Part shown: positions 8,104 to 33,762 of the stretch, in pieces
How the letters are laid out: every line of letters begins with the position of its first letter
Numbering within the stretch: position 1 is the first letter of the stretch
Assembly (NCBI GenBank): GCA_964397485.1
Contig: CAYNHT010000003.1
Coordinates: 10,529-74,528 of the forward strand
Length of the DNA stretch: 64,000 bases
Direction: 5' to 3'
Source: an uncultured Muribaculaceae bacterium
GTDB taxonomy: Bacteria; Bacillota_I; Bacilli_A; RF39; UBA660
Program-made: the position numbers and the translations under genes
Notes under the pieces: generated by a model
Seen by the model: the letters and a program-made list of their open reading frames with translations, nothing else
Database searches by the model: none
Told to the model about the DNA's origin: nothing

Positions 8104-8148
8104 ATAATTATTAATATAATACAATAATAAAATGTATGAGAGTTATAT

Positions 8149-8171
8149 AACTGAAAAGATCAGTTTTTTTT
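8149..8171 (+). terminator. Terminator after tRNA-Leu (AACTGA-aaaga-TCAGTT + T8)
   Basis: 6-bp stem followed by a T-tract. With the promoter above, this makes the tRNA a stand-alone transcription unit. Confidence 0.55.
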
Positions 8172-8219
8172 AACCTTTTGCCACATTACTTTGTATAGAT
8201 TTAATGGAGGAATAATTTT

Positions 8220-9098
8220 ATGACCAAAAAAGAAAATGTAAAATTGAAAAGTGTTGTCGTTATGACTATTTTAGTATTATTAGCGAGTATGTTTGCTATC
8301 ATGTCAAAAGCTTTTTTACCGAGTGATGTAAATATTGATGACTTCAATAGTGTCTTTGTTACAATTTTAGGATTCCCCATTGTTGCCTCACTTTATTTTA
8401 TTATGGTGTATTCGCATAGTGCGATTGTTACAAAAATTTTTGGAGAGAGAACAAATCTATCAAAAATACAAATAGGTCTTCGCTTTGGCGTTTGTTTTGC
8501 GTTGATTTTCCTATTTGGAATGCAAGAAGTTGTAGTTGAAGCATCACCTTTTTCTAGTTGGGGGATTGATTTTGTTGTATATCAGTTTTTTATGGGATTA
8601 GGGGAAGCGCTTGTTGCATTAATCATGTGTTTAGCAATATCTAAATGGACATTAAAAGATAAGAAACTTGTTGACCATCCTGGTGACTATAGTATAAAAA
8701 ATAAGACTTTATTATTGATATTTATTGTTGTTGCCTTTACCCTAGGAAGGGCTATGGTCTATGAAATTGGTTTAATAGCAAGTAATGTAGATAATTTTCC
8801 AATCGCAACTTATGGGTGGACAATTTTATTTGGATTAATAATAGCTTTTTGCTTTATTTTACTTTATCCTATTTTTGGGGAAGAGAAAAATAGTTTTAAG
8901 TTATCGTCTAAAATAGTTTTAATGACAATAGGGCTTAGTTGGATAATTTTTAATATGTTTATAGGTTTGATTTTTAAAGGAGCAATGGTAGATGTGCTAT
9001 TAAGAAGTGGCTTAGATGTGTTTTGGGTCTTTGTAGCATCTTACTTTTGGCACAAATATTTTAATGGGAGTAATCATCCTACTAGCGATTTACAATGA
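8220..9098 (+). CDS. Polytopic membrane protein (~8 TM), unknown function; first gene of the island
   Basis: Hydrophobicity pattern only. Has its own terminator at 9136-9168. Confidence 0.4.
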   Translation: MTKKENVKLKSVVVMTILVLLASMFAIMSKAFLPSDVNIDDFNSVFVTILGFPIVASLYFIMVYSHSAIVTKIFGERTNLSKIQIGLRFGVCFALIFLFGMQEVVVEASPFSSWGIDFVVYQFFMGLGEALVALIMCLAISKWTLKDKKLVDHPGDYSIKNKTLLLIFIVVAFTLGRAMVYEIGLIASNVDNFPIATYGWTILFGLIIAFCFILLYPIFGEEKNSFKLSSKIVLMTIGLSWIIFNMFIGLIFKGAMVDVLLRSGLDVFWVFVASYFWHKYFNGSNHPTSDLQ

Positions 9099-9135
9099 AT
9101 TTTGTTTTAATTTTAAATTGTTAATATATGTAAAA

Positions 9136-9168
9136 AAGATAAAAAACATTGATTTTATCTTTTTTTTT
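9136..9168 (+). terminator. Terminator (AAGATAAAA-8 nt-TTTTATCTT + T7)
   Basis: 9-bp perfect stem followed by a T-run. Confidence 0.55.
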
Positions 9169-9216
9169 AGTTCATTATAAGATATACTATTAGTAAGGAA
9201 TAAAGGGTGTGATAAT

Positions 9217-10833
9217 GTGATATTAAGAAAGCCATATGCATTTTTCATTAAACAGTTTAAATTAATCCATTTAATTTTAACAGCTTTAATAGCTTATTTG
9301 ATTTATCGTACTGGTTTATCATTAGCATTCTTTAATGAATACATATCTACAAATCAAACAGTAATTGATCAAGATTTGACAGGCAATTTATTTAATATTT
9401 ATATGTTTGTGATTCCGTTTTTAATTATTTTAGCATCCGTAACTATCTTATCAGTTATGCAATTGAAAAAGAAACCAATACTATTTTATGTAACTTTAAT
9501 TATCATTTATATTGCAATGCTGTTTGTCTATAATCATGTTTATTCTACTTTATTATTAATGGAAGGTAGACTCATTGATATTAGAACGGTTAGAATGGCT
9601 CGCGACTTTTTAATGATGGGCTTTGTTGCTCAAGCACTAAGTGTCATTATCACATTTGTTAGAGCAACTGGATTTGATATTCAAAAGTTTAATTTCGGAC
9701 AGGATTTAGCTGCTTTAGAAATTAGTGAAGAAGATAGAGAAGAGTTTGAAGTCGAGGTAAATCTAGATACGGACAAAGTTCAAAGGAAAGTTCGACGTAA
9801 TGTTAGGTTTGCAAGATACATATATGTAGAAAATAGATTTTTAATAAACTTAGTTTCATTAGTTTTAATAGCAACTATATGTTTTGTTGTCTACTTAAAT
9901 CTTAATATTTATAACAAGGTATATTCTGAAAAAGATGCTTTTTTAACATCTGATTTTAGTATGTGGATAAATAAAAGTTACATCACAAGGGAAGACTATG
10001 AGGGTAATGTTATTACTGGTACTGACCATTCTTTTGTTGTTCTAGAGATAAGTTTAAAGAATAATTTCGCAAATAAACAAAAATTAGATATCGCTAGAAC
10101 TCAACTTGTTATAGGGGATAAGATATTTTATCATGATTATAACCATCGTGAGAGACTTTTTGACCTTGGGCGTGTATATGATGACACTTTATTGCCTAAC
10201 AATTTTACCAAGTGGTTGTTGGTATATAAAGTTCCAAATAATATGCTAGTAAATCAAAAAATTTCGTTTAGGTACGTTGATAAAGTTGACTATGTAGGAG
10301 GAAAGTTAAGTCCAAAATACATTAATGTTACGGTATCACCTAAAAATTTAGATCAAAAGACTAAATCATATAGTTATAATATAAAAGATGAAGTAAGTTT
10401 TAGTGATAGTATCCTAGGAGACGTTAAATTGGTTGTAAATAAAATTGATATTGCTAATCAATTTAAATTAGATTATCAATTTTGTGTAAATAAAGATGAA
10501 TGTTATCAATCATATGAGTACTTGAAACCAAGTATTATAAATCAACACAATAAAACTCTTCTATATTTGAATGGATTTATTGAATGGGATGAAAAAATAG
10601 CTGTTGATCCAATTCCGAGTGTGTATAAATTTATAGATTTGTTTGGCACGTTTGTGTATGAAATAAATGGTGAAACTAAGATTCAAAACATTATTTTAAA
10701 AGAGGTAAGATCGTTAAAAATAAAAAGAGCTAATGACTATTACATAGAGTTGTTGGAAGAAGTTCAAAAAGCTGATAAAATTTCAATTATTTTTAAAGTA
10801 AGAGACGTTGAATATAAATATACACTAAAATAG
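9217..10833 (+). CDS. Membrane protein: 4 N-terminal TMs, one further TM (~res 205-228), then a ~300-aa extracytoplasmic domain; unknown function
   Basis: Topology read from the sequence. No recognisable catalytic motifs. Confidence 0.4.
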   Translation: MILRKPYAFFIKQFKLIHLILTALIAYLIYRTGLSLAFFNEYISTNQTVIDQDLTGNLFNIYMFVIPFLIILASVTILSVMQLKKKPILFYVTLIIIYIAMLFVYNHVYSTLLLMEGRLIDIRTVRMARDFLMMGFVAQALSVIITFVRATGFDIQKFNFGQDLAALEISEEDREEFEVEVNLDTDKVQRKVRRNVRFARYIYVENRFLINLVSLVLIATICFVVYLNLNIYNKVYSEKDAFLTSDFSMWINKSYITREDYEGNVITGTDHSFVVLEISLKNNFANKQKLDIARTQLVIGDKIFYHDYNHRERLFDLGRVYDDTLLPNNFTKWLLVYKVPNNMLVNQKISFRYVDKVDYVGGKLSPKYINVTVSPKNLDQKTKSYSYNIKDEVSFSDSILGDVKLVVNKIDIANQFKLDYQFCVNKDECYQSYEYLKPSIINQHNKTLLYLNGFIEWDEKIAVDPIPSVYKFIDLFGTFVYEINGETKIQNIILKEVRSLKIKRANDYYIELLEEVQKADKISIIFKVRDVEYKYTLK

Positions 10834-10888
10834 TGTAAAATAGTGTTTATAATATAGATTTTGTGGGAAATTATGGTATAATAATTAA

Positions 10889-11572
10889 ATGGAGGATGGT
10901 ATGATGAAACACTTTTATTTGTTTATACTATTTATGTTTTTTATCATATTAGTCCCAAACAAAGTAGATGCTTTATGTGATTATAATGAAAAAGCTCGAT
11001 TGAAGGCAATTGCTGCTAATATCACATTTAAAACAGATCATATTGAATCTGATGGACAAGTAGAGTTTTTTATAACACTTAGCAATCTACACCCTGAATT
11101 ATATGTGAAGGATGTTATGGGTTATAAATTTCACTATTATAATGCTTCTGCAAAGAATCCAAAAGAGTTAACAATTGGTGGTTACTCTCATGGTAGGACA
11201 ATACAGTATGAGTTTTATACTAAAAACGCTGGTTGTACGAATGAAGTCTTACTAATAAGGTACGTAACTTTACCTCCATATAATAGATTTTATAATGATC
11301 CTCTTTGCAAAGGTCTTGAAAGTTATACCTTATGTCAAAAGTGGGTTGTAAATAATCTTAGTTATGGCAACTTTAAAAAGCAGATTGAAGATTATAAAAA
11401 TAGACCTATTGTTGATCCCGATGATGAAGATCCAGGAGAAAAAATAGATCACTTTGATATGATTGCTAATTTTTTAGGTAAATATTATGTTTATATCTTA
11501 ATGACAATTATTATAGTGTGCTTAATATCAATATATAGAATAAATAAGAAAGATAGTTTCGACTTTTCATAG
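10889..11572 (+). CDS. Secreted protein with signal peptide and C-terminal TM anchor; unknown function
   Basis: N-terminal signal (FYLFILFMFFIILVPNKVDA) and C-terminal TM (YYVYILMTIIIVCLISIY). The stop lies 8 bp before the next gene. Confidence 0.4.
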   Translation: MEDGMMKHFYLFILFMFFIILVPNKVDALCDYNEKARLKAIAANITFKTDHIESDGQVEFFITLSNLHPELYVKDVMGYKFHYYNASAKNPKELTIGGYSHGRTIQYEFYTKNAGCTNEVLLIRYVTLPPYNRFYNDPLCKGLESYTLCQKWVVNNLSYGNFKKQIEDYKNRPIVDPDDEDPGEKIDHFDMIANFLGKYYVYILMTIIIVCLISIYRINKKDSFDFS

Positions 11573-11579: not shown

Positions 11580-14500
11580 ATGTTTGTGAAAATTAAATTA
11601 CATAAATTAATTATGCTTGTAATAGGTATTTGTGTTATTGGTAGTGTAGGTAGTGTTTCTGCAGAAACTAACATCGGTGGTGGTGGTAATGCGGTTACTA
11701 ATCCTTGTAGCACATCTAGACCAGCAACTTGTTATAACGCTAAACTTGGGACTGGGTCGGGTGATAGTCTAGTACAAGGTGTACGTGTATCTGTTGTAGA
11801 TAAATATGGAAATAGAATACCAGGTACTACGAGTATAGATTATGTTCAAAACAGTGGGCATGCTAATCAAATAAGTACAAGCCCATATTTGAAATTTTTT
11901 CAAAGTGGTAAATATACCAAAAATGAGATATTAGCTGGAAAAGCGAGTGGTGCATCAGCAAGCGGGAGATACGCCGTAACTCATCTTGGTGAATTGCCAA
12001 CATTTATGAATATAGGACCTAATACGGTTATAGAAGATTATTTAAAAGCAAAAAAAGTTAATAGAGATTATACAAAATTAAAACAATTATTCATGGATCC
12101 CATAGGATATGATCCAAAAAAATTTCCGGCTAATGATGTGAAAACTCATTCTTTGCTTTTTGAACCATTAACTTTTATGAGAGTTACAAAATATCCAGTT
12201 TCTGGTTCCCCAACAATAACGAATTATTTTGGAACAGTAACGGAAGTTTCAAAAATGATGGTAGAAGATGGCACAATTTTATGGACGGGTTATTTTGGAA
12301 AGATGTTACCTTTAGCGATTTATGTTAGAGATTATAAAGACCCAATAACTGGCGCAACACAAACTAATCGTGCTGGGCTACAGTCAATTTCAGCTTGGGT
12401 AGCGGCAAATAAGAGTGATTATTCAACCGAAATTTTAACATCAAATGGTACGGCAGCAGGACACTTTTGGGTAAGTGAGTTGATTGAAGAGGAAAAGGAT
12501 CCTTGCGAAGTCAATCCTAATAAATTACCGGAGTGTTGTGCTTTACCACAAAATAAAAATAAATTACCAGAATGCTGTGGTTTAGAAGAAAACAAGAATA
12601 AACCGGAGTGTAATCCCGATCTATGCACATTCACATTGGACTTATCTTGTCCAGGAGATTGTGATGAAAGTACAACTGGTTATATTAAAGATATTGAAGA
12701 CTGGCAGTGTATTTTTGGAAGTAGAACAGCTACTGACGCTAATATAAGAGATCACTTCTACAAATGGGGAAATCGATATTGTTCAATGTTCTGTCGGGAG
12801 AGTTTAACTTATGAATTCCCTAATGGAAATATGACTGTATCTGCAGGAAGTCACTTCACAATTGGAGATACTTGGTATTACCCAAACTGGGGACCTGTTC
12901 ATTTTACTGGACGAAGTGAGTGTAGAACAACAAGTGATACAGGAAGTATTAGATGGGATTTATTCGAAAAAGATTGGGCTCCAGCTAATGATACTGTTAA
13001 AAGTAGATGGGATACTTATCAAATTGCTATAAAACAAGATGCAGCAGTTTCATCTTCGAGCTCCAGTGGTAAATTAGATTGTAATTGGACTTGTGATAGA
13101 TATCACCCTACATATCCTTGTGGTACTGCAGAAAAACCTAGCACTTGTGGTGGTGGTTGTGCGGCTGGAAGCTATAAAAGTACTACGATGTATCCAGCTT
13201 CAGCTTCATATGATGGTAAAAATATTACTCCAGGATCATGGTGTAGTAATAGTAGACCTAACTTCGATGTGCCTGGCAAACGTTCAAGTTATCTGAGTGC
13301 CGTAAATGCAAGAGATACTTTAGAAAGTAATCTACGTCAATGTAATGATTGGGAAAGAGGTTATGAAGAGTTCGAACCAGTCATTGGTTCTCAGTATGAA
13401 GAAGCAGTTTATGGCGGACATTATTATAATTTATCGAAAGTACTAGAAAGAAGAACTCAAACTCATTATTTCATCAATGGAAATAGTACGCCTTCGATTG
13501 ATACCTATAAAAGAACACGTTCGGATTATAGATATGTTTGTAATACAACTGGTGTTCCTTGTGTTAAAGGTCCGTCAGTAGGAGGAAGTTTGATGGTTTA
13601 CCCTACAAATGACTGGATAAGACAATTTACTACTAAAGAGTATGATTATACTTTACCAGCAAGTGTTTATAGATATGTTTTAAAACCATCTGGTGAATCT
13701 GTTAATCAAAAACCAGGTGCAGGAGAAAACTATGTTGATCTTGGTTATAGTAATTTACCAATTCATTATTCAAGAGCAACTGGTTCATATGATATATTTT
13801 TACAATATACTTCACTTGGACCTAATCACAACTTCAATAAATTTATTTTTGAAGGTGCTGAGTTAAATGTAAATTATGGAGAAAGTCTATCAATATATAC
13901 ATGGTTATTTGAAAATAACTTAACATGGATGATTGCCGATTGTGGTGAGGGTGGCCACCATTTAAGTCATTATTTTGGAGCCCCGCTTATTGCTGCAGGG
14001 CGTCTGAATGAATTTTTAGATTCGGGTTGTGCGAAACAATATGGTTGTAAATTGTTAGAAACTAGGTCACCATATCGTGTTTCATGTCCTGGCGATATTG
14101 TTGATAGTAGACATGGCGGGTCTTCGAGTAATTACAAACGTTTAATGCAGTGTATTGCAGAAAAGCGAATTGTTACTGCAAGTAGCGAAGAGTGTGATAC
14201 AAAATACGATTGTAAGTACAACGTTAGAAATTCATTAATGGATAACCCTAACGATCCAACACTTAATCCGCAAGGAATTGATGTTGTTTATCGTACGATC
14301 TCACTAACAAATCCATTCCCAGGTAAAAATGGTAATGGTAGAACTCCAGGCTCTAACTGGAATAGTAGTAGTTTAATTAAACAATATATTACTAATAATA
14401 GAAATTTATCAAATCCAGAAAGAATATATTTTGACCGTGAACCTATGTATGAAATTAATTTAACTCCGGTTGTAATAAAAGAAATAAGAACTCACAACCG

Positions 14501-14684
14501 TAAACAAGCTGCATATAACCGTGGTGGTTATGCTGATTTTGAGTTAAATTGTGGTACTGGAACTGGTCGTGAATGTAAGAGTTATTTTATAAGAGATGTA
14601 TTTAGTAAATATTTTATTTCTAATAGATGTGGAATGAGTAGCAACTGGAACGCTTGCCTTAATTCCGATAAGAGTAAGGGGTGA
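11580..14684 (+). CDS. Giant secreted Cys-rich protein (1034 aa, about three dozen Cys), candidate pilus tip adhesin/effector
   Basis: Signal peptide ...VGSVSA|ETN. Cys-rich repeats (NKLPECCALPQNKNKLPECCGLEENKNKPEC). No LPXTG motif and no C-terminal TM. It is the first gene of the Tad-like operon. Confidence 0.5.
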   Translation: MFVKIKLHKLIMLVIGICVIGSVGSVSAETNIGGGGNAVTNPCSTSRPATCYNAKLGTGSGDSLVQGVRVSVVDKYGNRIPGTTSIDYVQNSGHANQISTSPYLKFFQSGKYTKNEILAGKASGASASGRYAVTHLGELPTFMNIGPNTVIEDYLKAKKVNRDYTKLKQLFMDPIGYDPKKFPANDVKTHSLLFEPLTFMRVTKYPVSGSPTITNYFGTVTEVSKMMVEDGTILWTGYFGKMLPLAIYVRDYKDPITGATQTNRAGLQSISAWVAANKSDYSTEILTSNGTAAGHFWVSELIEEEKDPCEVNPNKLPECCALPQNKNKLPECCGLEENKNKPECNPDLCTFTLDLSCPGDCDESTTGYIKDIEDWQCIFGSRTATDANIRDHFYKWGNRYCSMFCRESLTYEFPNGNMTVSAGSHFTIGDTWYYPNWGPVHFTGRSECRTTSDTGSIRWDLFEKDWAPANDTVKSRWDTYQIAIKQDAAVSSSSSSGKLDCNWTCDRYHPTYPCGTAEKPSTCGGGCAAGSYKSTTMYPASASYDGKNITPGSWCSNSRPNFDVPGKRSSYLSAVNARDTLESNLRQCNDWERGYEEFEPVIGSQYEEAVYGGHYYNLSKVLERRTQTHYFINGNSTPSIDTYKRTRSDYRYVCNTTGVPCVKGPSVGGSLMVYPTNDWIRQFTTKEYDYTLPASVYRYVLKPSGESVNQKPGAGENYVDLGYSNLPIHYSRATGSYDIFLQYTSLGPNHNFNKFIFEGAELNVNYGESLSIYTWLFENNLTWMIADCGEGGHHLSHYFGAPLIAAGRLNEFLDSGCAKQYGCKLLETRSPYRVSCPGDIVDSRHGGSSSNYKRLMQCIAEKRIVTASSEECDTKYDCKYNVRNSLMDNPNDPTLNPQGIDVVYRTISLTNPFPGKNGNGRTPGSNWNSSSLIKQYITNNRNLSNPERIYFDREPMYEINLTPVVIKEIRTHNRKQAAYNRGGYADFELNCGTGTGRECKSYFIRDVFSKYFISNRCGMSSNWNACLNSDKSKG

Positions 14685-14689: not shown

Positions 14690-15091
14690 GTGAAAGAATC
14701 ATTTTGGGCAGTTTTGGTTATATTAATGGGTATAATATCAATAGTATTTGTATACTTATTTCAAAATTTAACCAATACTGATGAACATAACTACCACTTA
14801 TTAAAAGAGGCTACTGAAGCAGCAATGTATGATGCTTTAGATTTAGCTGCTTATCGTAAAGATAAGACAATTAGAATTGATCGTGAAAAGTTTGTGGAAA
14901 ACTTTGTAAGAAGATTTGCGGAAAGTGCAAACCTTGCGCAAACTTACAATATAAAAATTTACGATGTTAATGAGACTCCCCCAAAAGTGAGCCTACAAGT
15001 TTCTAGTAGACAATCAGGAACTAGTGGCAGTGAAATTATTGAATTTGATATTGTTAATCGTATAGATGCAATATTGGAAACCCCATATTAG
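14690..15091 (+). CDS. Small pilin/pseudopilin-like protein (MKES leader, N-terminal hydrophobic helix)
   Basis: MKESFWAVLVILMGIISIVFVYLF followed by a ~110-aa soluble domain. Shares the M(K/R)E start with the three pilin-like genes at 18.9-20.0 kb. Confidence 0.35.
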   Translation: MKESFWAVLVILMGIISIVFVYLFQNLTNTDEHNYHLLKEATEAAMYDALDLAAYRKDKTIRIDREKFVENFVRRFAESANLAQTYNIKIYDVNETPPKVSLQVSSRQSGTSGSEIIEFDIVNRIDAILETPY

Positions 15092-19524: not shown

Positions 19525-19537
19525 AAGGTGAAGATAT

Positions 19538-20988: not shown

Positions 20989-21017
20989 TTGACAAAAGAT
21001 GGAAAATGACGTATTAT
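20989..21017 (+). promoter_or_regulatory. Consensus sigma-A promoter (TTGACA-17 bp-TATTAT) at the Tad-module/T4SS-module boundary
   Basis: -35 at 20989-20994 and -10 at 21012-21017, 26 bp upstream of the 21043 start. Confidence 0.55.
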
Positions 21018-25779: not shown

Positions 25780-27563
25780 TGGATATAAAGAGTCAAATTG
25801 CGCCTAAGGGTCTAGAGTTTAGATCAGCTGATTTTATTATCAGTGATAAACACGCAACAATTTTATCAGTTATCTCTTACCCTAAATTTATTAGTCCTGG
25901 ATATTTAGCTTCATTGACAAGTATGTCAGGAATAAAAGTTGTTATAAAACATATTCCGCTACCTTTTAGTGTTATAACAAAGATGTTGAATAAAGAAATT
26001 GCTGATTTAAAGCAACGTTATCAAGAAGAAAATGATAAAACAATTCAAGAAAGAATAAGACAAGATTATGAATCGTTAGAGTATTTTATTACTCAATTGG
26101 CAGCTAGCCAATCTAAAATTTATGATTTTCAAATGCATGTAATGGTTACTGCTGATTCTGCAGATCAATTGATTAGTAAGAAGTTACAGGTTAAAAATTA
26201 TTTAGAAGCAATGGAATTGCGCGCATTTCCATTACGTTTTGAACAAGAAAAAGTACTTAAATCTATTATTCCGATATATCCTTCACAGGATGTAGAAAGT
26301 AGAATAGGAACACCGATACCTGCACCAACTATTGCAGCAATGTATCCATTTATCTTTGATAGTATTAAAGATCCTGGATTATCTACATTGTTAGGAGTAG
26401 ATTTTTCAGGAGGGGTTATTCTTTTTAATCAATTCTTATATCAAATTCGTAAAGAGCATAACCGAAATAATGCAAATATGATTATTTTAGGAACATCTGG
26501 TAGTGGTAAATCTACTGCTGCTAAAATGATGTTAAGAACAAATATTAGAAATAATAATCAACTTGTAGTTATCGATCCCGAGGGAGAACTTGAGGAAATG
26601 TCTCGTTTATATGGTGGAGACTTTATTGATCTAGGTAAAGGTGGAGAATATGGGATGATAAACCCATTGGAGGTCGTTCTAGATTTCGATGAAGAGGAAG
26701 CAAAACAAGGCCTTGGTTACACTGTATTAACTAGAACTTTGCAAACGATAAAGGCATTCTTGAAATATTACGATCCAAAGGTAGAAGAAGATGTTATTAC
26801 TTTATTTAGTGAAGTAGTTCAGGATACATATCGTCGTTTCGGAATGGATTTCAATACAGATTACTCAAAATTCACTTCAAAAGATTATCCTACATTTAAA
26901 GATGTGTATGCTACTATTAGGGGTAGACTATTATCAATGCCTGAACAAAGTCACGAAAAATCTGTAATGGAGAAGTTAGAATTAAAAATTAGACCAATTG
27001 TAAAAGAATTAAAATATTATTTCGATGGTCATACAACTATCTCTCCACAAAGTGAATTTATAGTTTTTAATATAAGAGAATTAATGAATGCTGATATGAA
27101 CATCAGAAATGCATTGTTCTTTAATATTTTAAAATATGCATGGGGATTAACGTTAAATAAAGCAATTAATACAATATTAATGGTTGATGAAGCTCATGTA
27201 CTATTGAGTGGTAATAATACATTAGGAGCTGATTTCTTAGCTCAAGTTCAAAGACGTTCGAGAAAATATAATACTGGAACAATAATTATTACGCAACAAC
27301 CAAGTGACTTCTCTGATCCTAGTGTTATTACACAAGGAAAAGCAATTTTTGACAATGCATCTTATTACCTAGTTATGGGATTAAAGAAGCAGGCTGTTGA
27401 AGATTTATCGAAGTTAATTGATTTAAATGATAATGAAAAAGAAAGTATTAAGAGATATAACCAAGGTGAAGCACTATTTGTTTGTGGAAGCCGCAGAATG
27501 CGAATTAATGTAATTGCTACTGAGCAAGAACTTGATTCATTTGGAAGCGGTGGGGGATTCTAA
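25779..27563 (+). CDS. VirB4-family ATPase, core/ATPase part
   Basis: Walker A (GTSGSGKST), 'VIDPEGE' and Walker B (MVDEAHVLL). The combined 181+594 aa is the size of a VirB4. Confidence 0.8.
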   Translation: MDIKSQIAPKGLEFRSADFIISDKHATILSVISYPKFISPGYLASLTSMSGIKVVIKHIPLPFSVITKMLNKEIADLKQRYQEENDKTIQERIRQDYESLEYFITQLAASQSKIYDFQMHVMVTADSADQLISKKLQVKNYLEAMELRAFPLRFEQEKVLKSIIPIYPSQDVESRIGTPIPAPTIAAMYPFIFDSIKDPGLSTLLGVDFSGGVILFNQFLYQIRKEHNRNNANMIILGTSGSGKSTAAKMMLRTNIRNNNQLVVIDPEGELEEMSRLYGGDFIDLGKGGEYGMINPLEVVLDFDEEEAKQGLGYTVLTRTLQTIKAFLKYYDPKVEEDVITLFSEVVQDTYRRFGMDFNTDYSKFTSKDYPTFKDVYATIRGRLLSMPEQSHEKSVMEKLELKIRPIVKELKYYFDGHTTISPQSEFIVFNIRELMNADMNIRNALFFNILKYAWGLTLNKAINTILMVDEAHVLLSGNNTLGADFLAQVQRRSRKYNTGTIIITQQPSDFSDPSVITQGKAIFDNASYYLVMGLKKQAVEDLSKLIDLNDNEKESIKRYNQGEALFVCGSRRMRINVIATEQELDSFGSGGGF

Positions 27564-27577: not shown

Positions 27578-29881
27578 TTGGTGGTGAGTAAAATGGATAA
27601 CGAGAATAACAAGCAGGAACAATCAGGATTGCAAAAAGCTGCAGGCAAGGTTCAAAATGTGAAGAATATGGTTGACAAAGTTAAAAAAATCAAGGCTTTG
27701 ATGCCTATAATTTCTCTTCTTGCGCCAATTCTAGCTAAAATTGCTATTGCTATTCTAATTATTATTTTAGTCATGATACCAATTATGTATATACAAGACA
27801 AAATTGAAAATATAGCTATTGGTTTAGATAAATTTATAAATTTTATTACATTGAATGGATGGGAAGAAAGTGATCAAGTATTCTTTAAAAAATTGCAAAA
27901 TGAATACGATCGATTTGATAGTTTCCCTAGGAAGCAAGGCGAATTTGATATTCCTTTAATAGCTTCAACAATTCATTACAGTACGCTAGTTACTCCAGAC
28001 ACATATTCATATAATGAATCTGATAAAAACAGTTCTTATCAATATAATAATACTGATCCTATGATTCCAGGTAATCAAATTAGAAATTTCTATATTGTTG
28101 CTAATGATAAATTAGGTAGTGCGTTTACTTTAATACCAGGTGAAAAAAAATTAATCGGTCATCTAATAGATACAAAATTCACTACAAAATGTGTTAATGT
28201 TCCACAAGGTTGGGCTGCTCTTAATCCTTTTGAATGGGGAGATGCATATGATGCAGCAAAAGAACTTGTCGAAAGTTTATTCTTACATTTTAAGTATGGA
28301 GTTGAAGACACTGGCAAAGTATATTTTACGAGATTAAACTTACTTAAAGTTATTCAATTACTTTATAGTTATAATGCTGTAGGTGAGAATAAATGGATTG
28401 CTGATATAGAAAACTTAAAACATGAGGTTATAAATGATAATTTTGCTCAGGATTTAATAAGAATTATTAAGCAATCAGAGATGGCAAATACATGTGGCGA
28501 AGGACAAGTTCCAATGCCGATGATCACAAAATTTATTAACTATGAATATTATAAAGATTACTTAAGAGGAACAACTATATTAGGGGTCCAACAACCGGGA
28601 TATTTGGGAATTCAATCTTTTGCTGTATGTGATAGATGTGAATATAAAAATGCAACAGCTGAAGAGAAGAAATTCTTAAAAGAAGTATGGATAAATGAAA
28701 TATTCGATCAGAAAGATGCATATAACTACTTGCAAGGTACAAGGTCTAGAAATCAATTAACTGAGTACCTGCCAGGGATGTCCACATTGCCAATTCAGGT
28801 TGGCGCTGGGGAGAGTTGGAAAACAAATGTTACACGAGGTTTTGCATTAGGAACAGCCAAGTGCTTTAAAAATGGTGTTTGGACTGGAGAAACTACATGT
28901 AACCACTTAGGGATAGATTTTGGTTATCCAACCGGAACTCCTGTTACAGCCGTAGCTAATGGTTATGTAATAGAGGCATCATATAATAGTGGCGGATATG
29001 GACTATATGTAAAATTAGGACATGACGTTGATGGTGATAATCGATATGATTATTATAGTTTATATGCCCATTTATCTGTTATAAATGTTGCTGAAAATTC
29101 GATGGTTGGTGGCGGACAAAAAATAGGTGAAGTTGGATCTACTGGAAATTCATCGGGTCCCCATTTACATTTTGAAATTATGGATGATAAAGGTACTAGA
29201 ATAGATCCTGAACCTATTTTAAATGGTATTGCAACCGGTGCAGGTAATCCTTTAAATCCATTATCTGGATCGATGACATGTGGCATGTTTACTGACTCTC
29301 AATTAAAAGATCGTAATGATGCCTTAGCTCAAAAAGTTAAGGATGCAGGTCTTGGTACTAGAGAGGGAGTTGTAGCGGCTGCTCGATACTTATCAACTGA
29401 ACTGGGTGTTATTATTCCATATTGGTATGGAGGAAAACACACTCAAAAAGGTTTAAGTAGTGAGTGGGGTTGCGGTAAGGCAATAACAGCTGACCCAGCT
29501 ACTACGCAACAACCAACTGGAACAACACACCCGTATGGAATGGATTGTAGTGGTTTTGTTTCTTGGTCTGTAAGAAATGGTGGTTATAAGGCTAGTACCA
29601 TTCCAGCTGGATCTACAAATCAAGGTAATTTCACTGATGATAAGATTCCATGGGGAACTGAAAGTATTAGTTATGCTAAACCAGGAGACTTGGCATGGAA
29701 TTCATCTCATATCGGCGTTATTATAGCCGTTGATAGTGCAAAATGCAAGTACTATGTAGCTGAAGAAAGAGGAGCTGAATATGGTTTGGTAGTCACTGAA
29801 AATGACTGTACTAGTAGAAGATATACTCATATTGTCTTAATGGACGACTATTATAATAATAGTAATAATAAGGAGGGCTAA
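27578..29881 (+). CDS. Membrane-anchored bifunctional cell-wall hydrolase: M23 (LytM) peptidase + CHAP/NlpC-P60 domain (VirB1 functional analog, PrgK/TcpG-like)
   Basis: N-terminal TM. M23 motifs (HLGIDFGYP...LYAHLS...GSTGNSSGPHLHFEI). C-terminal Cys-His domain (DCSGFVSW...SHIGVII). Confidence 0.75.
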   Translation: MVVSKMDNENNKQEQSGLQKAAGKVQNVKNMVDKVKKIKALMPIISLLAPILAKIAIAILIIILVMIPIMYIQDKIENIAIGLDKFINFITLNGWEESDQVFFKKLQNEYDRFDSFPRKQGEFDIPLIASTIHYSTLVTPDTYSYNESDKNSSYQYNNTDPMIPGNQIRNFYIVANDKLGSAFTLIPGEKKLIGHLIDTKFTTKCVNVPQGWAALNPFEWGDAYDAAKELVESLFLHFKYGVEDTGKVYFTRLNLLKVIQLLYSYNAVGENKWIADIENLKHEVINDNFAQDLIRIIKQSEMANTCGEGQVPMPMITKFINYEYYKDYLRGTTILGVQQPGYLGIQSFAVCDRCEYKNATAEEKKFLKEVWINEIFDQKDAYNYLQGTRSRNQLTEYLPGMSTLPIQVGAGESWKTNVTRGFALGTAKCFKNGVWTGETTCNHLGIDFGYPTGTPVTAVANGYVIEASYNSGGYGLYVKLGHDVDGDNRYDYYSLYAHLSVINVAENSMVGGGQKIGEVGSTGNSSGPHLHFEIMDDKGTRIDPEPILNGIATGAGNPLNPLSGSMTCGMFTDSQLKDRNDALAQKVKDAGLGTREGVVAAARYLSTELGVIIPYWYGGKHTQKGLSSEWGCGKAITADPATTQQPTGTTHPYGMDCSGFVSWSVRNGGYKASTIPAGSTNQGNFTDDKIPWGTESISYAKPGDLAWNSSHIGVIIAVDSAKCKYYVAEERGAEYGLVVTENDCTSRRYTHIVLMDDYYNNSNNKEG

Positions 29882-30619
29882 ATGAACAAAAAGATAGTAA
29901 CTAAGTTAATATTATTGTGTTTCTTTAGTCTCTTTTTAATTGGTTGTAATGCCAAATATGACTTGACAATATATAGTGATAATTCAGTGAAGGAAAACAT
30001 AAAAATAACAATCCCGAATCAGTTAATACTATCAGAGACTAAAAATATAAAAAGTTATTTAAATGATAAAATAAAATCGTATAAGAATATTAGCACCTAT
30101 AACAATTATAAATTTGATAGACGTGTATTAAAAAATTATTCTTATGTTAATGCTAGTAGATACTATGATACATTAAGTGATTATGCAGAATCTCCACCAG
30201 TGAATAACTTATTTCAAAATCTTATGGTGGTTGAAAATGAGTATTATACGATTTTTCAAACAGTTGGAGAATATTATTATGATTATTTGTATGGAGCTGA
30301 AAGTGAAGGAACAAGTCCATTAGCTGATACTGCAATGAAAGATGTTGTTGTTTCTATTAAATTACATAATAAAATAATTGAAACGAATGCTGATTTAAGG
30401 GATGAGAAAGCTAATGTTTACACTTGGAATTTAACCCCAAATGACAAATTAAAAAGTATATATATAAAGTATAGTACTGAAAAAAGATATGACGTGATAA
30501 TTCTTTCATATATTATGAATAATATTGTAATAGTGATTTTAGGTGGAGCAATAATAATTGCCTTACTAGTAGGGTTGATAATATTAAAAACTAAATACCT
30601 AAGCAACAATCGAATTTGA
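29882..30619 (+). CDS. Lipoprotein with C-terminal TM anchor, paralog A
   Basis: Lipobox LIGC and C-terminal TM IVIVILGGAIIIALLVGLII. The body is colinear with the next gene. Confidence 0.45.
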   Translation: MNKKIVTKLILLCFFSLFLIGCNAKYDLTIYSDNSVKENIKITIPNQLILSETKNIKSYLNDKIKSYKNISTYNNYKFDRRVLKNYSYVNASRYYDTLSDYAESPPVNNLFQNLMVVENEYYTIFQTVGEYYYDYLYGAESEGTSPLADTAMKDVVVSIKLHNKIIETNADLRDEKANVYTWNLTPNDKLKSIYIKYSTEKRYDVIILSYIMNNIVIVILGGAIIIALLVGLIILKTKYLSNNRI

Positions 30620-30672
30620 TTAGGAGGAAAAGTAATGTATAAATTGAGAATAATATATAAAGGTGCCGAGAT

Positions 30673-31386
30673 ATGAAAAAAACTAAATTGATGTTACTAA
30701 TGTTGATCGTGTTTACTATTACTGGTTGTACTATTGATTATAATTTAACAATTAATAGCGATAAACAAGTTGAAGAAACAACCAAAATCATAAATAGTAA
30801 CGAAATGATTCTCTTGCACAATGAAAGTGTTAATTTGTTTTTGACAGAACAAATCAATACTCATAAGCAAATTGATATATTTAGAAGATATGTTTTTGGT
30901 AAGCATCTTGGAAAAGATTCTTCATATATTAGCATAAAAAGAACATATGGAACATTAAAAGATTATATTACTTCTCCTACATTTAATCATTTATTCGAGA
31001 ACGCTACAATAACAGAAACAGAAGAATATGTATCTTTTCAAACAACTGGAGAATATTATTATAATAATGTTTATGGTGAACAATCCGAACCAGACTTTTA
31101 TGTTGGAGATATAAATATCCAAATTAGATTCCACAATAAAATTATTGATAGTAATGCCGATGAAATAGATGAAAAAAGTAATACATTAAAGTGGAAAATA
31201 ACTGATAAAAATCTTGAAAAATCAATCTACTTTAAGGTTAGTAATGAAAAAAGATATGATATAATAGTAATAGATTACATAATGAAAAATCAATCTACTA
31301 TTATAATTAGTTTATCAATACTAGTTGTAATAATGATAATCAGTTTATACGTATATGTTAATTTCAGAAAGAATAATACAATATAA
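30673..31386 (+). CDS. Lipoprotein with C-terminal TM anchor, paralog B
   Basis: Lipobox ITGC. Shared blocks (YYY..YG..SE, IQIRFHNKIIDSNAD vs VSIKLHNKIIETNAD, RYDIIVIDYIM vs RYDVIILSYIM). Confidence 0.45.
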   Translation: MKKTKLMLLMLIVFTITGCTIDYNLTINSDKQVEETTKIINSNEMILLHNESVNLFLTEQINTHKQIDIFRRYVFGKHLGKDSSYISIKRTYGTLKDYITSPTFNHLFENATITETEEYVSFQTTGEYYYNNVYGEQSEPDFYVGDINIQIRFHNKIIDSNADEIDEKSNTLKWKITDKNLEKSIYFKVSNEKRYDIIVIDYIMKNQSTIIISLSILVVIMIISLYVYVNFRKNNTI

Positions 31387-31398
31387 TGAGGTGAGATA

Positions 31399-33702
31399 AT
31401 GAAGTTGAAATTTAGAGCAGATGCTAAAGATATTGCTATATTCATTATTTTTGCACTATTTCTTTTATATTTTGTTTCAATTGGTGTACTTAATATAGGA
31501 AATTTTGCTAAAAATAATACACTACATGGATTTAATCCATTTCCGGCTTTTTCGCCAGAATATCTTGCCCCAACTATGGTCTTTTATCTATTATCATTGA
31601 TTGCTATTATTACTAGCGTATCATCGTATTTCTTTGATCGAGAAAAAGGATTTGGGGTTGTTACTGATCCTAAAACAGATAAAGGATATTCTAGATGGGC
31701 GAAAGATAAAGAGATGAAAAGTTTATTAAGTATGGTAACCCCAAATAGTAAAACGGCAGAAGCTGCAGGCGTACCAATGATAAATGATGGTAAAGAAATT
31801 TGGGTAGATAACGGTGAATATCATAATTTAATTATTGGATCAACAGGTAGTGGTAAAACACAAATTGTTGTTCATCCATTAGTTAAACTGTTAGCAAAAA
31901 AAGGTGAATCAATGATTGTTACCGATCCAAAAGGGGAAATATATGAAGAAAATGTGGAATTATTAAGACAAAAAGGATACAATATTGTCTTATTAAACTT
32001 CCGTGATCCTCAAAGAGGTAATGCATGGAATCCACTTAGTTTACCTTATTCACTATACCAAGGAGATAATCAAGATAAAGCAAATGAGTTATTAGATGAC
32101 CTTGCAATGAATATCCTATATGATGAAAAATCTCAAAATCAAGATCCATTTTGGGAAAGAACTTCTGCTGATTATTTTGCAGGATTGTCTTTAGCACTTT
32201 TTGAAGATGCAAAAGAAGAAGAAATAAATTTAAATAGTATTAACTTAATGACAACTGTTGGTGAGGAAAAATATTTAGGAAATACTTATATTAAAGAGTA
32301 TTTTAGTGATAAAAATCAAGCTTCACCAGCTTATATAAATGTTGCTAGTACTTTGATGGCACCTAGTGATACAAAGAGCAGTATTTTATCTGTATTTAAA
32401 CAAAAGATCAAGTTATTCTCTTCTCGTGAAAATCTATCAGAGATGTTATCACATAATGACTTTGATATGAAGGATATAGGTAGACAAAAAACAGCTGTAT
32501 TCATTGTTATCCAAGATGAGAAAAAGACATATCATTCATTAGTAACAATTTTTATTAAACAATGTTATGAAACATTAATTGATGTTGCACAAGAGAATGG
32601 TGGAAAGTTACCATTTAGAACGAATTTCATTTTGGATGAGTTTGCTAATATGCCACCTTTAAAAGATGTAACTACAATGGTTACTGCAGCTCGTAGTAGA
32701 AATATAAGATTTAATTTTATTATTCAAAACTTTGCTCAATTATATCAAGTATACGGCAAGGAAAATGGAGAAACTATAAAAGGTAACTGTGGTAATATCA
32801 TATACTTAATTAGTAGTGAATTAAGCGCGTTAGAAGAAATCAGTAAGATGTGTGGAGAAGTTAAGTCAAAAGAAAAAGATAAGACTGCTAGTACGCCGTT
32901 AGTTACTGTTAGTGATTTGCAACGACTTAAACAATGGGAAACGATTATTCTTAGGACAAGAATGATGCCATTTAGAACGAGATTGACACCTAATTATAAA
33001 ATGAATTGGGGAGAGACTTTTCCAAAAGGAACATATCCTAGTCGTGAGAAACAACCAATTGCTATATTTGATTTGAAAAAATATGTTGATAATAAAAGAA
33101 ATGCTAAATTTGAATCAGCAAATGATATTTTAAATGATGGCAAGGAAAAAGAATCTTTATTTAATCCTACAAACTTATTTAATCAAGGAAAAGAAGCAAA
33201 TGATGGGTTGAACATGGATGATCTTATTAAGCGTATTGATGCAAAAATTGCGGAACTTGAAGAAGAAGAAAGACGCGAAAAAGGTGAGGCTATGGTTAAA
33301 CCTGATGCTGTCATAAATAATTTGGATGAAGAAAAGCAAAATAACATAGTCGGTTTAAACGAAGAGATAAAGAATAATGATGAAATAATTAGTAATCCGT
33401 TTAATAATAATGATATTATTGATACTAAATTTGATAATATAAGTTTTATAAATGATAATATTAAAAGTGAAACAATAGAAGAACCTATTATAGAACAACC
33501 AGTAGAGGAAATTGTTAGTGACCGTACAATTGAACCTGTAATAGAAGTTGTCCCTATTGAAAAAATTGAACAACCTATTCAAACAATGGACAAAACACCT
33601 AAGATTGAAAAGAATGTTGAAAATATTTCAAGTCATAATAATACAAAATACGTGACAGATGATCAATTTTTTGATGATTTCTTTAGTGATGATGAAGAAT
33701 AG
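31399..33702 (+). CDS. VirD4/TraG-family type IV coupling protein with acidic low-complexity C-terminal tail
   Basis: Two N-terminal TMs, Walker A (GSTGSGKTQ), 'TDPKGE' and Walker B (NFILDEFANMPPL). The C-terminal ~200 aa are D/E/N/I-rich. Confidence 0.8.
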   Translation: MKLKFRADAKDIAIFIIFALFLLYFVSIGVLNIGNFAKNNTLHGFNPFPAFSPEYLAPTMVFYLLSLIAIITSVSSYFFDREKGFGVVTDPKTDKGYSRWAKDKEMKSLLSMVTPNSKTAEAAGVPMINDGKEIWVDNGEYHNLIIGSTGSGKTQIVVHPLVKLLAKKGESMIVTDPKGEIYEENVELLRQKGYNIVLLNFRDPQRGNAWNPLSLPYSLYQGDNQDKANELLDDLAMNILYDEKSQNQDPFWERTSADYFAGLSLALFEDAKEEEINLNSINLMTTVGEEKYLGNTYIKEYFSDKNQASPAYINVASTLMAPSDTKSSILSVFKQKIKLFSSRENLSEMLSHNDFDMKDIGRQKTAVFIVIQDEKKTYHSLVTIFIKQCYETLIDVAQENGGKLPFRTNFILDEFANMPPLKDVTTMVTAARSRNIRFNFIIQNFAQLYQVYGKENGETIKGNCGNIIYLISSELSALEEISKMCGEVKSKEKDKTASTPLVTVSDLQRLKQWETIILRTRMMPFRTRLTPNYKMNWGETFPKGTYPSREKQPIAIFDLKKYVDNKRNAKFESANDILNDGKEKESLFNPTNLFNQGKEANDGLNMDDLIKRIDAKIAELEEEERREKGEAMVKPDAVINNLDEEKQNNIVGLNEEIKNNDEIISNPFNNNDIIDTKFDNISFINDNIKSETIEEPIIEQPVEEIVSDRTIEPVIEVVPIEKIEQPIQTMDKTPKIEKNVENISSHNNTKYVTDDQFFDDFFSDDEE

Positions 33703-33762
33703 TATCCAAAAATAAGCAAATAAACTCTATTTAATTGTATGTACTACATATAATGAAGTAGG

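Follow-up and report, generated by a model that had tools for sequence, protein, structure and literature searches.

In the uncultured gut order RF39, a chromosomal gene cluster resembles the mating apparatus of Gram-positive conjugative plasmids

Homologues of VirB11, VirB4 and VirD4 occur together on Gram-positive conjugative plasmids, as reported since 2005 for pAW63 and pXO2 (PMC1196294) and likewise for pLS20 (PMC8557374). In these accounts the neighbours of the "VirB11" gene are listed as unknown and Gram-positive elements are stated to make no pili (PMC1196294; PMC8557374); reviews describe Gram-positive type IV secretion systems (T4SSs) as having neither VirB11 nor pili (PMC12857230; PMC8557374). 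Here we describe a 64-kb stretch of AT-rich chromosomal DNA (about 29% GC; contig CAYNHT010000003.1, hereafter "the window") from RF39 (class Bacilli), in which a conserved cluster of 22 co-oriented genes, g02-g23, at positions 9217-33702 comprises a divergent Tad-type module and a monoderm T4SS. On balance, we think it probable that this is one conserved chromosomal cluster of RF39, homologous to the mating apparatus of pLS20 and of pAW63, pXO2 and pBMB67, that serves its host as an organelle and works in the way proposed below. Taken alone, its identity, its homology to plasmid mating machines and its vertical inheritance appear highly probable from the comparisons that follow, while the individual mechanistic steps carry much less confidence.

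Homology to plasmid mating systems

The interval between a tRNA-Leu gene and a rhodanese gene holds 23 open reading frames (ORFs), all on the + strand and tightly spaced. Profile searches largely bore out the inventory given in an earlier note on this DNA, which had described a Tad-like module and a monoderm T4SS in a single co-oriented run; 22 of the genes belong to it. The chromosomal location given in that note is supported as well. The features of the locus are as follows (aa, amino acids; TM, transmembrane).

8018..8103, + strand: tRNA-Leu(CAA), located with ARAGORN; left landmark of the cluster
9217..10833, + strand: g02, 538-aa conserved membrane protein; first gene of the conserved cluster
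10889..11572, + strand: g03, 227-aa conserved protein; has a signal peptide and 5 Cys and is membrane-anchored at its C-terminus
11580..14684, + strand: g04, 1034-aa secreted protein with a signal peptide and 36 Cys
14690..15091, + strand: g05, DUF5411 protein (Pfam 2.1e-53); MKES N-terminus, then a hydrophobic helix (pilin-like)
15108..15947, + strand: g06, putative CpaB/RcpC-like (SAF) protein with an N-terminal anchor
15959..17125, + strand: g07, secretion ATPase of the TadA/CpaF-VirB11-FlaI group (T2SSE 5.7e-27)
17138..18043, + strand: g08, putative TadB-like platform protein; TM segments 1-24, 68-107 and 239-290, soluble middle domain of about 130 aa
18043..18825, + strand: g09, putative TadC-like platform protein with the topology of g08
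18893..19084, + strand: g10, 63-aa protein that starts MKEAAGEANLTV and has a hydrophobic helix and a tail rich in Cys
19105..19969, + strand: g11 and g12, paralogues of about 140 aa each, pilin-like; M[KR]E..G N-terminus, then a hydrophobic helix
19987..20985, + strand: g13, predicted TadZ/CpaE-like protein; N-terminal receiver-like domain and ParA/MinD-like domain with a degenerate Walker A
20989..21017, + strand: sigma-70-like match TTGACA-17-TATTAT, the best in the locus, in the g13-g14 gap between the modules; a consensus match only
21043..21372, + strand: g14, putative VirB2-like two-helix hairpin protein of the T4SS_pilin family
21456..23054, + strand: g15, 532-aa secreted protein with a C-terminal g14-like T4SS_pilin hairpin; varies between genomes
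23070..24914, + strand: g16, putative VirB6/TrbL-like channel protein (TrbL_4 1.3e-5)
24936..25256, + strand: g17, small protein with a hydrophobic segment two helices long; possibly VirB3/PrgI-like
25234..27563, + strand: g18 and g19, split VirB4, with an N-terminal piece of 181 aa (25234-25779) and a main ATPase of 594 aa (25779-27563)
27578..29881, + strand: g20, membrane-anchored cell-wall hydrolase (Peptidase_M23 4.6e-27)
29882..31386, + strand: g21 and g22, paralogous lipoproteins with a C-terminal anchor and a visible lipobox cysteine
31399..33702, + strand: g23, VirD4 coupling protein (T4SS-DNA_transf 8.6e-56) whose C-terminal tail is long and acidic
33763-34062: rhodanese gene, right landmark

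When g07 was compared with the plasmid database PLSDB by tblastn, the top matches were Gram-positive plasmids (the pLS20 family, Priestia, Paraclostridium and Virgibacillus); Enterococcus, Listeria, pXO1 and pXO2 came lower, and all of these ranked above proteobacterial CpaF, VirB11 and TrbB. Profiles of RF39 orthologues matched nine proteins of the Bacillus thuringiensis plasmid pBMB67, in the same internal order. E-values were 6e-10 for g05, 4e-43 for g06, 7e-42 for g07, 4e-12 for g08 and 7e-13 for g09 in the Tad-like half, and 1e-5 for g17, 7e-24 for g18, 7e-93 for g19 and 1.5e-89 for g23 in the T4SS half. A Priestia plasmid and a pLS20-family plasmid gave comparable matches to the RF39 profiles.

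The pLS20-family operon opens with the adhesin Tie, a 126-aa protein, the VirB11-like ATPase, proteins of 267 and 245 aa, a DUF4320 protein and tiny proteins, and continues with two 363-aa proteins, VirD4, VirB6, proteins of 103 and 192 aa, VirB4, a VirB8-like protein, a VirB1-like protein and the relaxase. Much of this content (genes 34-54; e.g. pBatNRS213, OK210094) is found in RF39 as well, with the parts in the same order: a large surface adhesin (putative in RF39) followed by a pilin-like protein of about 126-133 aa (gene 36, the counterpart of g05), a "VirB11" ATPase with 31% identity to g07 (1e-45), genes 38 and 39 corresponding to g08 and g09 (hhalign 97-98%), a DUF4320 protein that matches the N-termini of g11 and g12, tiny hydrophobic proteins, VirB6, a protein of about 100 aa, an N-terminal VirB4 piece, VirB4, a hydrolase and VirD4. 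The differences are that pLS20 is a plasmid, has an oriT as well as a relaxase and auxiliary relaxosome proteins, and is equipped with surface exclusion and with control by quorum sensing (PMC8557374), whereas the RF39 cluster is chromosomal and without a relaxase; that pLS20 has no detectable CpaB-like or g13-like gene; that its VirD4 precedes VirB6; and that identity is low (22-31%).

The second plasmid type, represented by pAW63, pXO2, pBT9727 and pBMB67 of the B. cereus group, resembles RF39 in having both blocks on one replicon. One block combines a DUF5411-like protein, a SAF (CpaB) protein, a ParA-like ATPase, the secretion ATPase, two membrane proteins, a small protein and DUF4320; the other holds VirD4, a small hairpin protein, TrbL, PrgI, an N-terminal VirB4 piece and VirB4. 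On pBMB67 itself, the VirD4 block reads MobP3 relaxase, VirD4, 126 aa, TrbL, PrgI, 227 aa and VirB4, and the ATPase block reads large protein, 134 aa, SAF, ParA-like ATPase, secretion ATPase, 305 aa, 244 aa, 89 aa and DUF4320. The block on the Priestia plasmid runs DUF5411, SAF, AAA_31, CpaF/VirB11, a "T2SS F family protein", a hypothetical protein and DUF4320, so that CpaB-like and ParA/TadZ-like genes are also present on pBMB67 and the Priestia plasmid. Unlike the RF39 cluster, plasmids of the pAW63/pBMB67 type carry a MobP3 relaxase, and their blocks are separated and interrupted by insertion sequence (IS) elements and group II introns. Their TadZ-like gene precedes the ATPase, whereas that of RF39 follows the pilin-like genes, and their VirB4 is only 29% identical. 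The combination of modules, which the earlier note had taken for an undescribed hybrid, is therefore not new: it is found on pBMB67, the pLS20 family and pAW63/pXO2, with homology for nine components (PMC8557374; PMC1196294).

In the other direction, the "unknown" genes around the plasmid "VirB11" (pLS20 genes 36 and 38-40) are homologues of the DUF5411, TadB-like, TadC-like and DUF4320 pilin-like proteins. The blocks lie at 10402-13927 in L163 (pBatNRS213), 30260-36471 in L166 (pBMB67) and 13517-19296 in L165 (the Priestia plasmid). Sequence comparison indicates for these plasmids that "VirB11" is part of an assembly module of the Tad-like kind, nearly complete and with pilin-like substrates. 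A literature search of partial coverage found no reading of the pLS20/pAW63 "VirB11" neighbourhood as a Tad-like module.

Components of the two halves

Direct family scans of the locus proteins were made with Pfam and NCBIfam, and 13 of the 23 proteins (g01 included) had no direct match in either. NCBIfam scored g07 at 115 bits for VirB11 and 104 bits for the TadA family, both far under the cut-offs; its PDB matches to FlaI, VirB11 and CpaF all fell at about 1e-16 to 1e-18, and hhalign against three canonical CpaF proteins gave 99.6%. Because g07 is equidistant by score from FlaI, VirB11 and CpaF, the partner proteins decide how Tad-like the block is. One of them, g06, matched RcpC at 8.9e-6 and TIGR03177 at 1.4e-6, both under the curated cut-offs, while its profile reached plasmid SAF proteins at 1e-43 and canonical CpaB by hhalign at 86% (E 5e-6); the assignment as CpaB-like is weak but consistent.

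For g08 and g09 the connection runs as a chain, from the RF39 proteins to plasmid homologues and from these to canonical TadB and TadC, with unrelated controls at or below 0.4% in hhalign. The canonical references were taken from three proteobacterial tad loci (including Ralstonia and Sphingobium), and the reference alignments hold 3-4 sequences. Along this chain g08 matched the plasmid group at 97.4% and the plasmid group matched canonical TadB at 94.5%; g09 matched the plasmid proteins in the TadC position at 98.5%, those matched canonical TadC at 85%, and g09 compared directly with canonical TadB gave 56.7% (E 1e-4). In profile searches g08 found the Priestia "T2SS F family" protein at 8.6e-15, which in turn matched Pfam T2SSF at 3.4e-5 (24.2 bits against a gathering cut-off, GA, of 25.2), and g09 found its plasmid homologues at 8e-18 and 7e-13. 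Both RF39 proteins have the same topology: one TM segment is followed by a double-length hydrophobic segment, probably a pair of TM helices, then comes a soluble domain of about 130 aa, and further TM segments stand at the C-terminus. These comparisons support a TadB/TadC-like designation only indirectly, by way of the plasmid proteins.

Other searches with g08 gave little. An exhaustive representative search returned a small, tight family of 270 matches, mostly fragments, whose distant members showed no T2SSF domain. There was no direct Pfam, NCBIfam or PDB match to g08, no tblastn match to it on plasmids and no significant hhalign match between g08 and g09; PDB profile searches with the g08 and g13 alignments found nothing, and a concatenated g08+g13 query against the protein database retrieved g13 relatives only.

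Four proteins of this half begin alike: in g05, g10, g11 and g12 the N-terminus has the conserved form M-[KR]-E-[SA]-x-(G), and about 20 hydrophobic residues come next; the M-K/R-E-S/A motif stands directly before the hydrophobic helix. Profile comparison identifies g05 as a homologue of pLS20 gene 36 (3e-9 to gene 36 of pBatNRS213, 1.6e-10 to the Priestia DUF5411 protein, 5.7e-10 to pBMB67; hhalign 97%). The N-terminus of g10 is nearly invariant among orthologues, making this protein a candidate for the major fibre subunit; it had no Flp or Flp_Fap profile match and no Flp motif (G/XXXXEY; it has no EY). The paralogues g11 and g12 (hhalign 100% to each other) matched plasmid DUF4320 proteins over their N-termini at 84.6% and 92.8%, with no TadE profile match and no G/XXXXEY motif. 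With Flp and TadE matches, a processing site and a peptidase in the window all wanting, filament formation is no more than inferred. As pure speculation, Glu3 of these four proteins may stand in for Glu5 of mature type IV pilins, without leader cleavage.

The TadZ-like label of g13 is suggested by its predicted fold; hhalign detected no sequence relation to plasmid or canonical TadZ. At the start of the cluster, g02 has five N-terminal hydrophobic segments and, by hydropathy, a large C-terminal domain outside the membrane; its orthologues were found in 35 loci (median identity 35%), and it had no Pfam or NCBIfam match. For g03 there were 57 orthologues with a median identity of 29%. The secreted protein g04 evolves fast (nonsynonymous divergence, dN, 0.65; ratio of nonsynonymous to synonymous differences, pN/pS, about 0.7) and is a putative adhesin by position: its slot is taken by the thioester adhesin Tie in pLS20-type plasmids and by large surface proteins in the Priestia plasmid and pBMB67, a correspondence of position only.

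Canonical Tad/Flp systems (type IVc; Cpa of Caulobacter, Tad of Aggregatibacter) share with RF39 a CpaB-like protein, a two-domain TadZ/CpaE-like protein, a CpaF/TadA-family ATPase and what is putatively a paralogous TadB/TadC-like pair, followed by small proteins with an N-terminal hydrophobic helix. The RF39 module differs in having no Flp pilin motif, TadV/CpaA peptidase, secretin, TadD or TadG; its similarity to canonical components appears only through profiles or folds, and on plasmids the module is always linked to a T4SS. Thus three features expected of a Tad system are present (the TadA/CpaF-type ATPase, the CpaB/RcpC protein and the TadZ/CpaE two-domain protein), and two defining ones are missing, the Flp motif and, among the ORFs scanned in the window, the prepilin peptidase: the module has a Tad-like parts list and is not a Tad system proper. 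Of the component names proposed in the earlier note, those of the ATPase, VirB4, VirD4 and the M23 hydrolase held, those of the CpaB-like, VirB6, VirB2-like and VirB3-like proteins are weak but consistent, those of the TadB/TadC-like and TadZ-like proteins have indirect support only, and the labels Flp-like and TadE-like could not be confirmed for want of a profile match or G/XXXXEY motif. Two other known machines were considered and set aside. A competence ComG set, which the earlier note had named as an identity that would refute its reading, does not fit, as g07 scored 82.7 bits with the ComGA model against a cut-off of 300 and the pilin-like N-termini lack GFTLxE; a spoIIIA-type feeding-tube operon has the wrong gene content, VirB4 and VirD4 being clear.

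In the T4SS half the two ATPases are the plainest components. The VirB4 piece g18 matched VirB4_plasma at 5.4e-15 (positions 98-276 of 894), the TraC-like family PF26593 and pBMB67 (6.7e-24); g19 matched P-loop_TraG/AAA_10, the solved Thermoanaerobacter VirB4 domain 4AG5 (2.3e-55) and pBMB67 (7e-93), and the same split of VirB4 is found in the plasmid homologues. The coupling protein g23 also matched TrwB_AAD_bind and TraG-D_C, and pBMB67 VirD4 at 1.5e-89. For the channel, g16 matched Mbov_0396/MMCAP2_0566 at 1e-10 and plasmid VirB6 proteins by hhalign at 96.6%. T4SS_pilin matches were obtained with seven g14 orthologues (best 5.6e-6; the g14 of the window itself only 0.1), and g14 weakly matched the N-terminus of the TM protein of a mycoplasma integrative and conjugative element (ICE). 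Both assignments, VirB6 for g16 and VirB2-like for g14, are weak but consistent. The VirB3/PrgI-like assignment of g17 is marginal (pBMB67 "PrgI family" protein 1.2e-5 by profile and 66% by hhalign; PrgI 0.0023 in one orthologue; TcpE 0.047).

The C-terminus of g15 matched T4SS_pilin at 0.0085 and MMCAP2_0566 at 0.026. The VirB2-like pilins of Patescibacteria are assigned to this same family, T4SS_pilin (PF18895) (PMC12102498; PMC12857230). Between species g14 varies from 1 to about 6 tandem copies, fusion proteins occur as well, and some genomes have extra large g14-domain proteins after VirD4 (e.g. L029 14383-21000, L031, L039, L043, L087 16316-18172 and L107 17039-19165), which recalls the multiple VirB2 paralogues reported for Patescibacteria. 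The earlier note had called g20 an M23+CHAP hydrolase; the M23 part is clear, while the C-terminal 208 aa gave only weak CHAP (8.7e-4) and NLPC_P60 (2.8e-3) matches, and g20 varies among relatives. The lipoproteins g21 and g22 (hhalign 100% to each other) stand roughly where the plasmids have their VirB8-like gene; a VirB8 identity found no support, hhalign giving no match to two plasmid VirB8-like proteins. The half as a whole has VirB4, VirD4, VirB6-like, VirB3/PrgI-like (marginally) and cell-wall hydrolase components of a monoderm conjugative T4SS, without, in the DNA searched, the cognate relaxase on a self-transmissible element. The sigma-70-like match at 20989..21017 is a possible internal promoter; promoter and terminator scans of this AT-rich locus gave no more sites than shuffled sequence.

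The best named NCBIfam matches of g14, the g15 C-terminus, g16 and g18 are mycoplasma ICE proteins (the Mbov_0396/MMCAP2_0566 TM protein and the VirB4 Mbov_0397), which places the RF39 channel part among T4SSs of the Firmicutes/Tenericutes type. The scores are far under the cut-offs, and mycoplasma ICEs are without an ATPase/Tad-like block. They are mobile and carry a DDE recombinase. In its standing within the genome, the RF39 cluster resembles the T4SS of Patescibacteria (candidate phyla radiation, CPR), which is monoderm-type (MPF-FATA-like), chromosomally fixed, lineage-wide, found in reduced genomes and mostly without a relaxase (PMC12102498; PMC12857230), with several VirB2-like/T4SS_pilin (PF18895) paralogues. 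Co-option of that system for a non-conjugative role has been proposed (PMC12102498; PMC12857230), and a T4SS has been shown experimentally to be essential for epibiotic growth only in Saccharibacteria (review, PMC12857230). Patescibacteria belong to another phylum, and no Tad-like or VirB11-like ATPase block has been reported there beside virB4; the likeness drawn here is one of function.

Conservation and inheritance in RF39

Thousands of metagenomic relatives of g07 are 70-88% identical and labelled as Bacilli or Mollicutes metagenome-assembled genomes. Among GTDB species genomes, one per species, at least 504 contain a g07 relative (a count of genomes and not a fraction of RF39), the best 80 being 68-83% identical. 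By their names, these genomes are RF39 or otherwise Bacilli or Mollicutes metagenome-assembled genomes; they include Ca. Coprosoma and Ca. Fimihabitans, which belong to family CAG-822 of the GTDB order RF39 (PMC8035907). VirB4 relatives were found in at least 444 metagenome stretches, the best 80 being 74-90% identical.

Across the 160 related loci fetched for comparison of gene order, the series g02-g03-g04-g05-...-g19 and on to VirD4 is kept. Rhodanese, dedA and rmuC follow VirD4 in 24 of 28 informative loci, scpAB lies upstream of the cluster in relatives, and at least five share the tRNA-Leu, which in L004, L013, L037, L045 and L046 also stands between scpB and the first conserved gene. 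The T4SS genes come after g09 in 50 of 68 informative loci. In the 18 others the split falls after g09/g10, the platform genes, and not at the Tad/T4SS border, and the genes beyond are unrelated; some loci have only g14 to VirD4, adjoining rhodanese. Loci with the Tad-like half only include L032, L056, L061, L073 and L026, and those with the T4SS half only include L102, L107 and L110-L112.

Median identity to the window protein is 80% for VirB4, 75% for the ATPase, 73% for g18, 65% for VirD4, 65 and 64% for g08 and g09 and 60% for g05; for the flanking genes it is 75% (rmuC), 58% (rhodanese), 55% (scpA and scpB) and 46% (dedA). Substitutions were analysed between the window and three relatives, and as synonymous divergence (dS) is saturated, a formal dN/dS has no meaning and pN, pS and dN are given instead. 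Synonymous sites are saturated alike in cluster and flanks (pS 0.55-0.77); dN is 0.07-0.2 for core genes and 0.4-0.65 for the fast g04, g16 and g21/22. By these measures the core proteins are conserved like their housekeeping neighbours and the cluster is under strong purifying selection. Its composition is ordinary: GC is 31.1% against 27.9% in the rest of the window and 19.9% against 17.1% at third codon positions (GC3), tetranucleotide distances lie within the window's range, and GC skew is unremarkable.

Absence of mobility genes was assessed on ORFs from 100 aa upward within the locus, on those from 110 aa upward elsewhere in the window, and on a few shorter ones. Among these there was no relaxase, no integrase or recombinase and no A24 prepilin peptidase (TadV/CpaA), and the window contains neither a second copy of the tRNA-Leu 3' end nor an att repeat. 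A tblastn search of 2.66 Mb of DNA flanking the related loci, for which three types of plasmid relaxase served as queries, found no relaxase.

Shared synteny, core conservation, equal synonymous saturation and ordinary composition together argue that the cluster is old and vertically inherited. Its adjacency to tRNA-Leu would be compatible with ancient ICE integration in an RF39 ancestor. As neither relaxase, integrase nor att site is present, and given the fixed neighbourhood, vertical inheritance and strong purifying selection, we regard the cluster as a host organelle and not as a mobile element. The earlier note had seen an accessory island, with everything from 8.2 to 33.7 kb inserted. 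Its observations that relaxase, integrase and prepilin peptidase are missing and that the tRNA 3' end is not repeated proved correct, there being no relaxase/integrase pair inside the interval, and the cluster looks domesticated, as it had allowed. The island itself was not borne out: GC, GC3, GC skew and tetranucleotides are unremarkable against the window, relatives have the cluster, often between the same flanks, and only 8220-9098 is genome-specific. Independent neighbouring islands, which the note had named as an outcome that would refute its reading, are not what the relatives show: the modules are contiguous in 50 of the 68 loci, although split in 18.

The ORF at 8220-9098 (+), between tRNA-Leu and the first conserved gene, encodes a 292-aa protein with seven hydrophobic segments and no family match; among the related loci its counterpart is found only in the near-identical contigs L001 and L002, making it the sole genome-specific gene of the interval. 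Elsewhere the window contains scpA, scpB, tRNA-Leu(CAA), the rhodanese gene, a DedA/VTT protein gene, rmuC, rnr, smpB, the tmRNA gene, der, a gerA operon and spoIVA. A type IV pilin-like gene at 1579-3306 (+) has a Pfam N_methyl motif and an internal start, MKKKGFTLIELLAVIV, fused to a long repeat-rich C-terminal region; the ORFs on either side of it, 223-1536 and 3340-4245, have a similar repeat region and a shared C-terminal domain. This canonical GFTLIE pilin implies a prepilin peptidase of the PilD/ComC type elsewhere in the genome. The gerA-type germinant receptor operon (55955-61638, minus strand) adjoins spoIVA; both agree with published predictions of sporulation and a peptidoglycan wall for RF39, and such a wall accords with the cluster's need of a hydrolase. 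At 41561-41905 and 42544-43269 (-) lie a tmRNA gene with the tag VTYNKKITGNRNQLAFA and, just downstream, a gene for a secreted LysM + CAP-domain protein. Beyond the latter are ORFs 44235-45146 and 45163-45879, both without a family match, and no integrase follows the tmRNA gene.

Proposed working, alternatives and significance

Strong selection across RF39 suggests that the machine is used for contact with other cells. In the working we propose, the M23/CHAP-like hydrolase would open the wall locally, and the ATPase, on a platform of g08 and g09, would polymerise g10 into a short wall-spanning fibre. The TadZ-like protein would position the ATPase, the CpaB-like protein would form a collar on the wall side, and g05, g11 and g12 would be minor subunits. 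The fibre would display the fast-evolving Cys-rich surface proteins g04 and g15, which would catch a partner cell, and a channel of VirB6, the VirB3-like protein, split VirB4 and T4SS_pilin proteins would then pass a substrate chosen by VirD4. That this substrate consists of proteins or other macromolecules, moved to or from neighbours in a contact-dependent, non-conjugative transfer that benefits the host, as proposed for Patescibacteria, seems to us to fall a little short of an even chance; mobilisation of DNA in trans by relaxases encoded elsewhere is a lesser possibility, and adhesion only, or DNA uptake or release, takes the remainder. We favour a direct physiological, contact-dependent role over mobilisation in trans because the machine does not move, is a cost to a small genome and shows conservation of the housekeeping kind.

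Several observations weigh against the reading of the cluster as a domesticated mating apparatus with a Tad-like module. The relatives were collected by way of the ATPase or VirB4, and the conservation figures of those two are inflated in consequence. The modules are non-adjacent in the 18 split loci and might work independently. Exclusion of a relaxase covers the window and, for three plasmid relaxase types only, the 2.66 Mb of related flanks. The comparison of g08 with canonical TadB by hhalign was negative when made directly, its link to T2SSF is transitive through reference alignments of 3-4 sequences, and its AlphaFold2 (AF2) model, from a shallow alignment, had a pLDDT of 48.6. The pilin-like proteins show no Flp or TadE match and no recognisable prepilin-peptidase site, and the window encodes no such peptidase.

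These points have to be set beside four alternatives. We consider it very improbable that the cluster is a mobile accessory island, an ICE or its remnant inserted at tRNA-Leu in this strain. It does start just 3' of a classic ICE target, its closest characterised homologues are all on conjugative plasmids and its GC content is slightly raised, but the same cluster stands in the same place, often between the same flanks, in dozens of species-level genomes, and neither the gene and att scans of the window nor the saturation, core conservation and tetranucleotide data given above show the marks of an insertion. Two independent neighbouring machines, a Tad-type adhesive pilus and a separate T4SS, would account for the 18 of 68 loci in which the T4SS genes do not follow g09, for loci with the T4SS block only beside rhodanese, for the best promoter-like match lying in the gap between the modules and for the several kb between the two blocks on pBMB67. 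Against this, every examined plasmid homologue whose transfer region is complete carries both blocks; the pLS20 family has its ATPase block within a single conjugation operon, between adhesin and VirD4 (PMC8557374); and in RF39 the modules are contiguous in 50 of 68 loci, with splits after g09/g10 instead of at the supposed border. We rate two machines as quite unlikely.

Conjugation proper is harder to set apart. A working machine for chromosomal DNA or mobilisable elements, with relaxase and oriT elsewhere, overlaps with the explanation we prefer, and we hold it to be possible, if on the unlikely side. No relaxase turned up in the window or in the related flanks with three relaxase queries, and a direct physiological benefit would explain more easily than second-order gains from gene exchange why reduced genomes keep a 24-kb cluster that does not move under very strong purifying selection; yet the characterised homologues all move DNA (PMC1196294; PMC8557374), VirD4 keeps well-conserved T4SS-DNA_transf, TrwB and TraG-D_C domains, and there is a resemblance between the T4SS part and proteins of mycoplasma ICEs. 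Comparable cases exist in mycoplasma chromosomal transfer and in the "hitch-hiking" of mobilisable elements on T4SSs. A DNA uptake (competence) or release apparatus, in the manner of H. pylori ComB, archaeal Ced or the gonococcal genetic island (GGI) of Neisseria, is highly unlikely in our judgement. Such a role would suit a chromosomal T4SS without a relaxase, in reduced genomes that would gain from imported DNA or nucleotides, with a canonical type IV pilin gene nearby (1579-3306); but ComB-type uptake systems have no VirD4, which is conserved here, g07 is not a ComGA equivalog by its bit score, and no ComEC or ComEA gene is linked within the window. The release system of Neisseria, for its part, needs a relaxase, which counts against the release version.

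Taken together, these data describe what appears to be a new, order-wide, chromosomal and relaxase-less version of the plasmid mating apparatus, parallel to the T4SS of Patescibacteria. A literature search of partial coverage, to which a prior description may have been lost, found no account of a T4SS or Tad-like system, pili or conjugation in RF39. The reading of the Gram-positive "VirB11" block as a nearly complete Tad-like assembly module is apparently also unreported; it bears on the textbook view of Gram-positive T4SSs and is open to direct test in pLS20 and B. subtilis, where genetic work is feasible.

RF39, a widespread lineage of the gut, has never been cultured, and what is said of its biology comes from genomes only; its members are described as gut Bacilli that are abundant and uncultured, have reduced genomes and show many auxotrophies. 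In such small genomes, a 24-kb, 22-gene envelope machine conserved at housekeeping level is a strong clue to life style. After that of Patescibacteria, it would be a second conjugation system to have become a host organelle independently, and a second case makes the question of what domesticated monoderm T4SSs do a comparative one. That RF39 rely on such a machine for an obligately contact-dependent life, attaching to other bacteria by a Tad-like wall-spanning fibre and exchanging macromolecules through the T4SS, is an unlikely proposal. If true, the cluster would be the Firmicute counterpart of the T4SS of epibiotic Patescibacteria, and dependence on contact may be one reason why RF39 resists pure culture.

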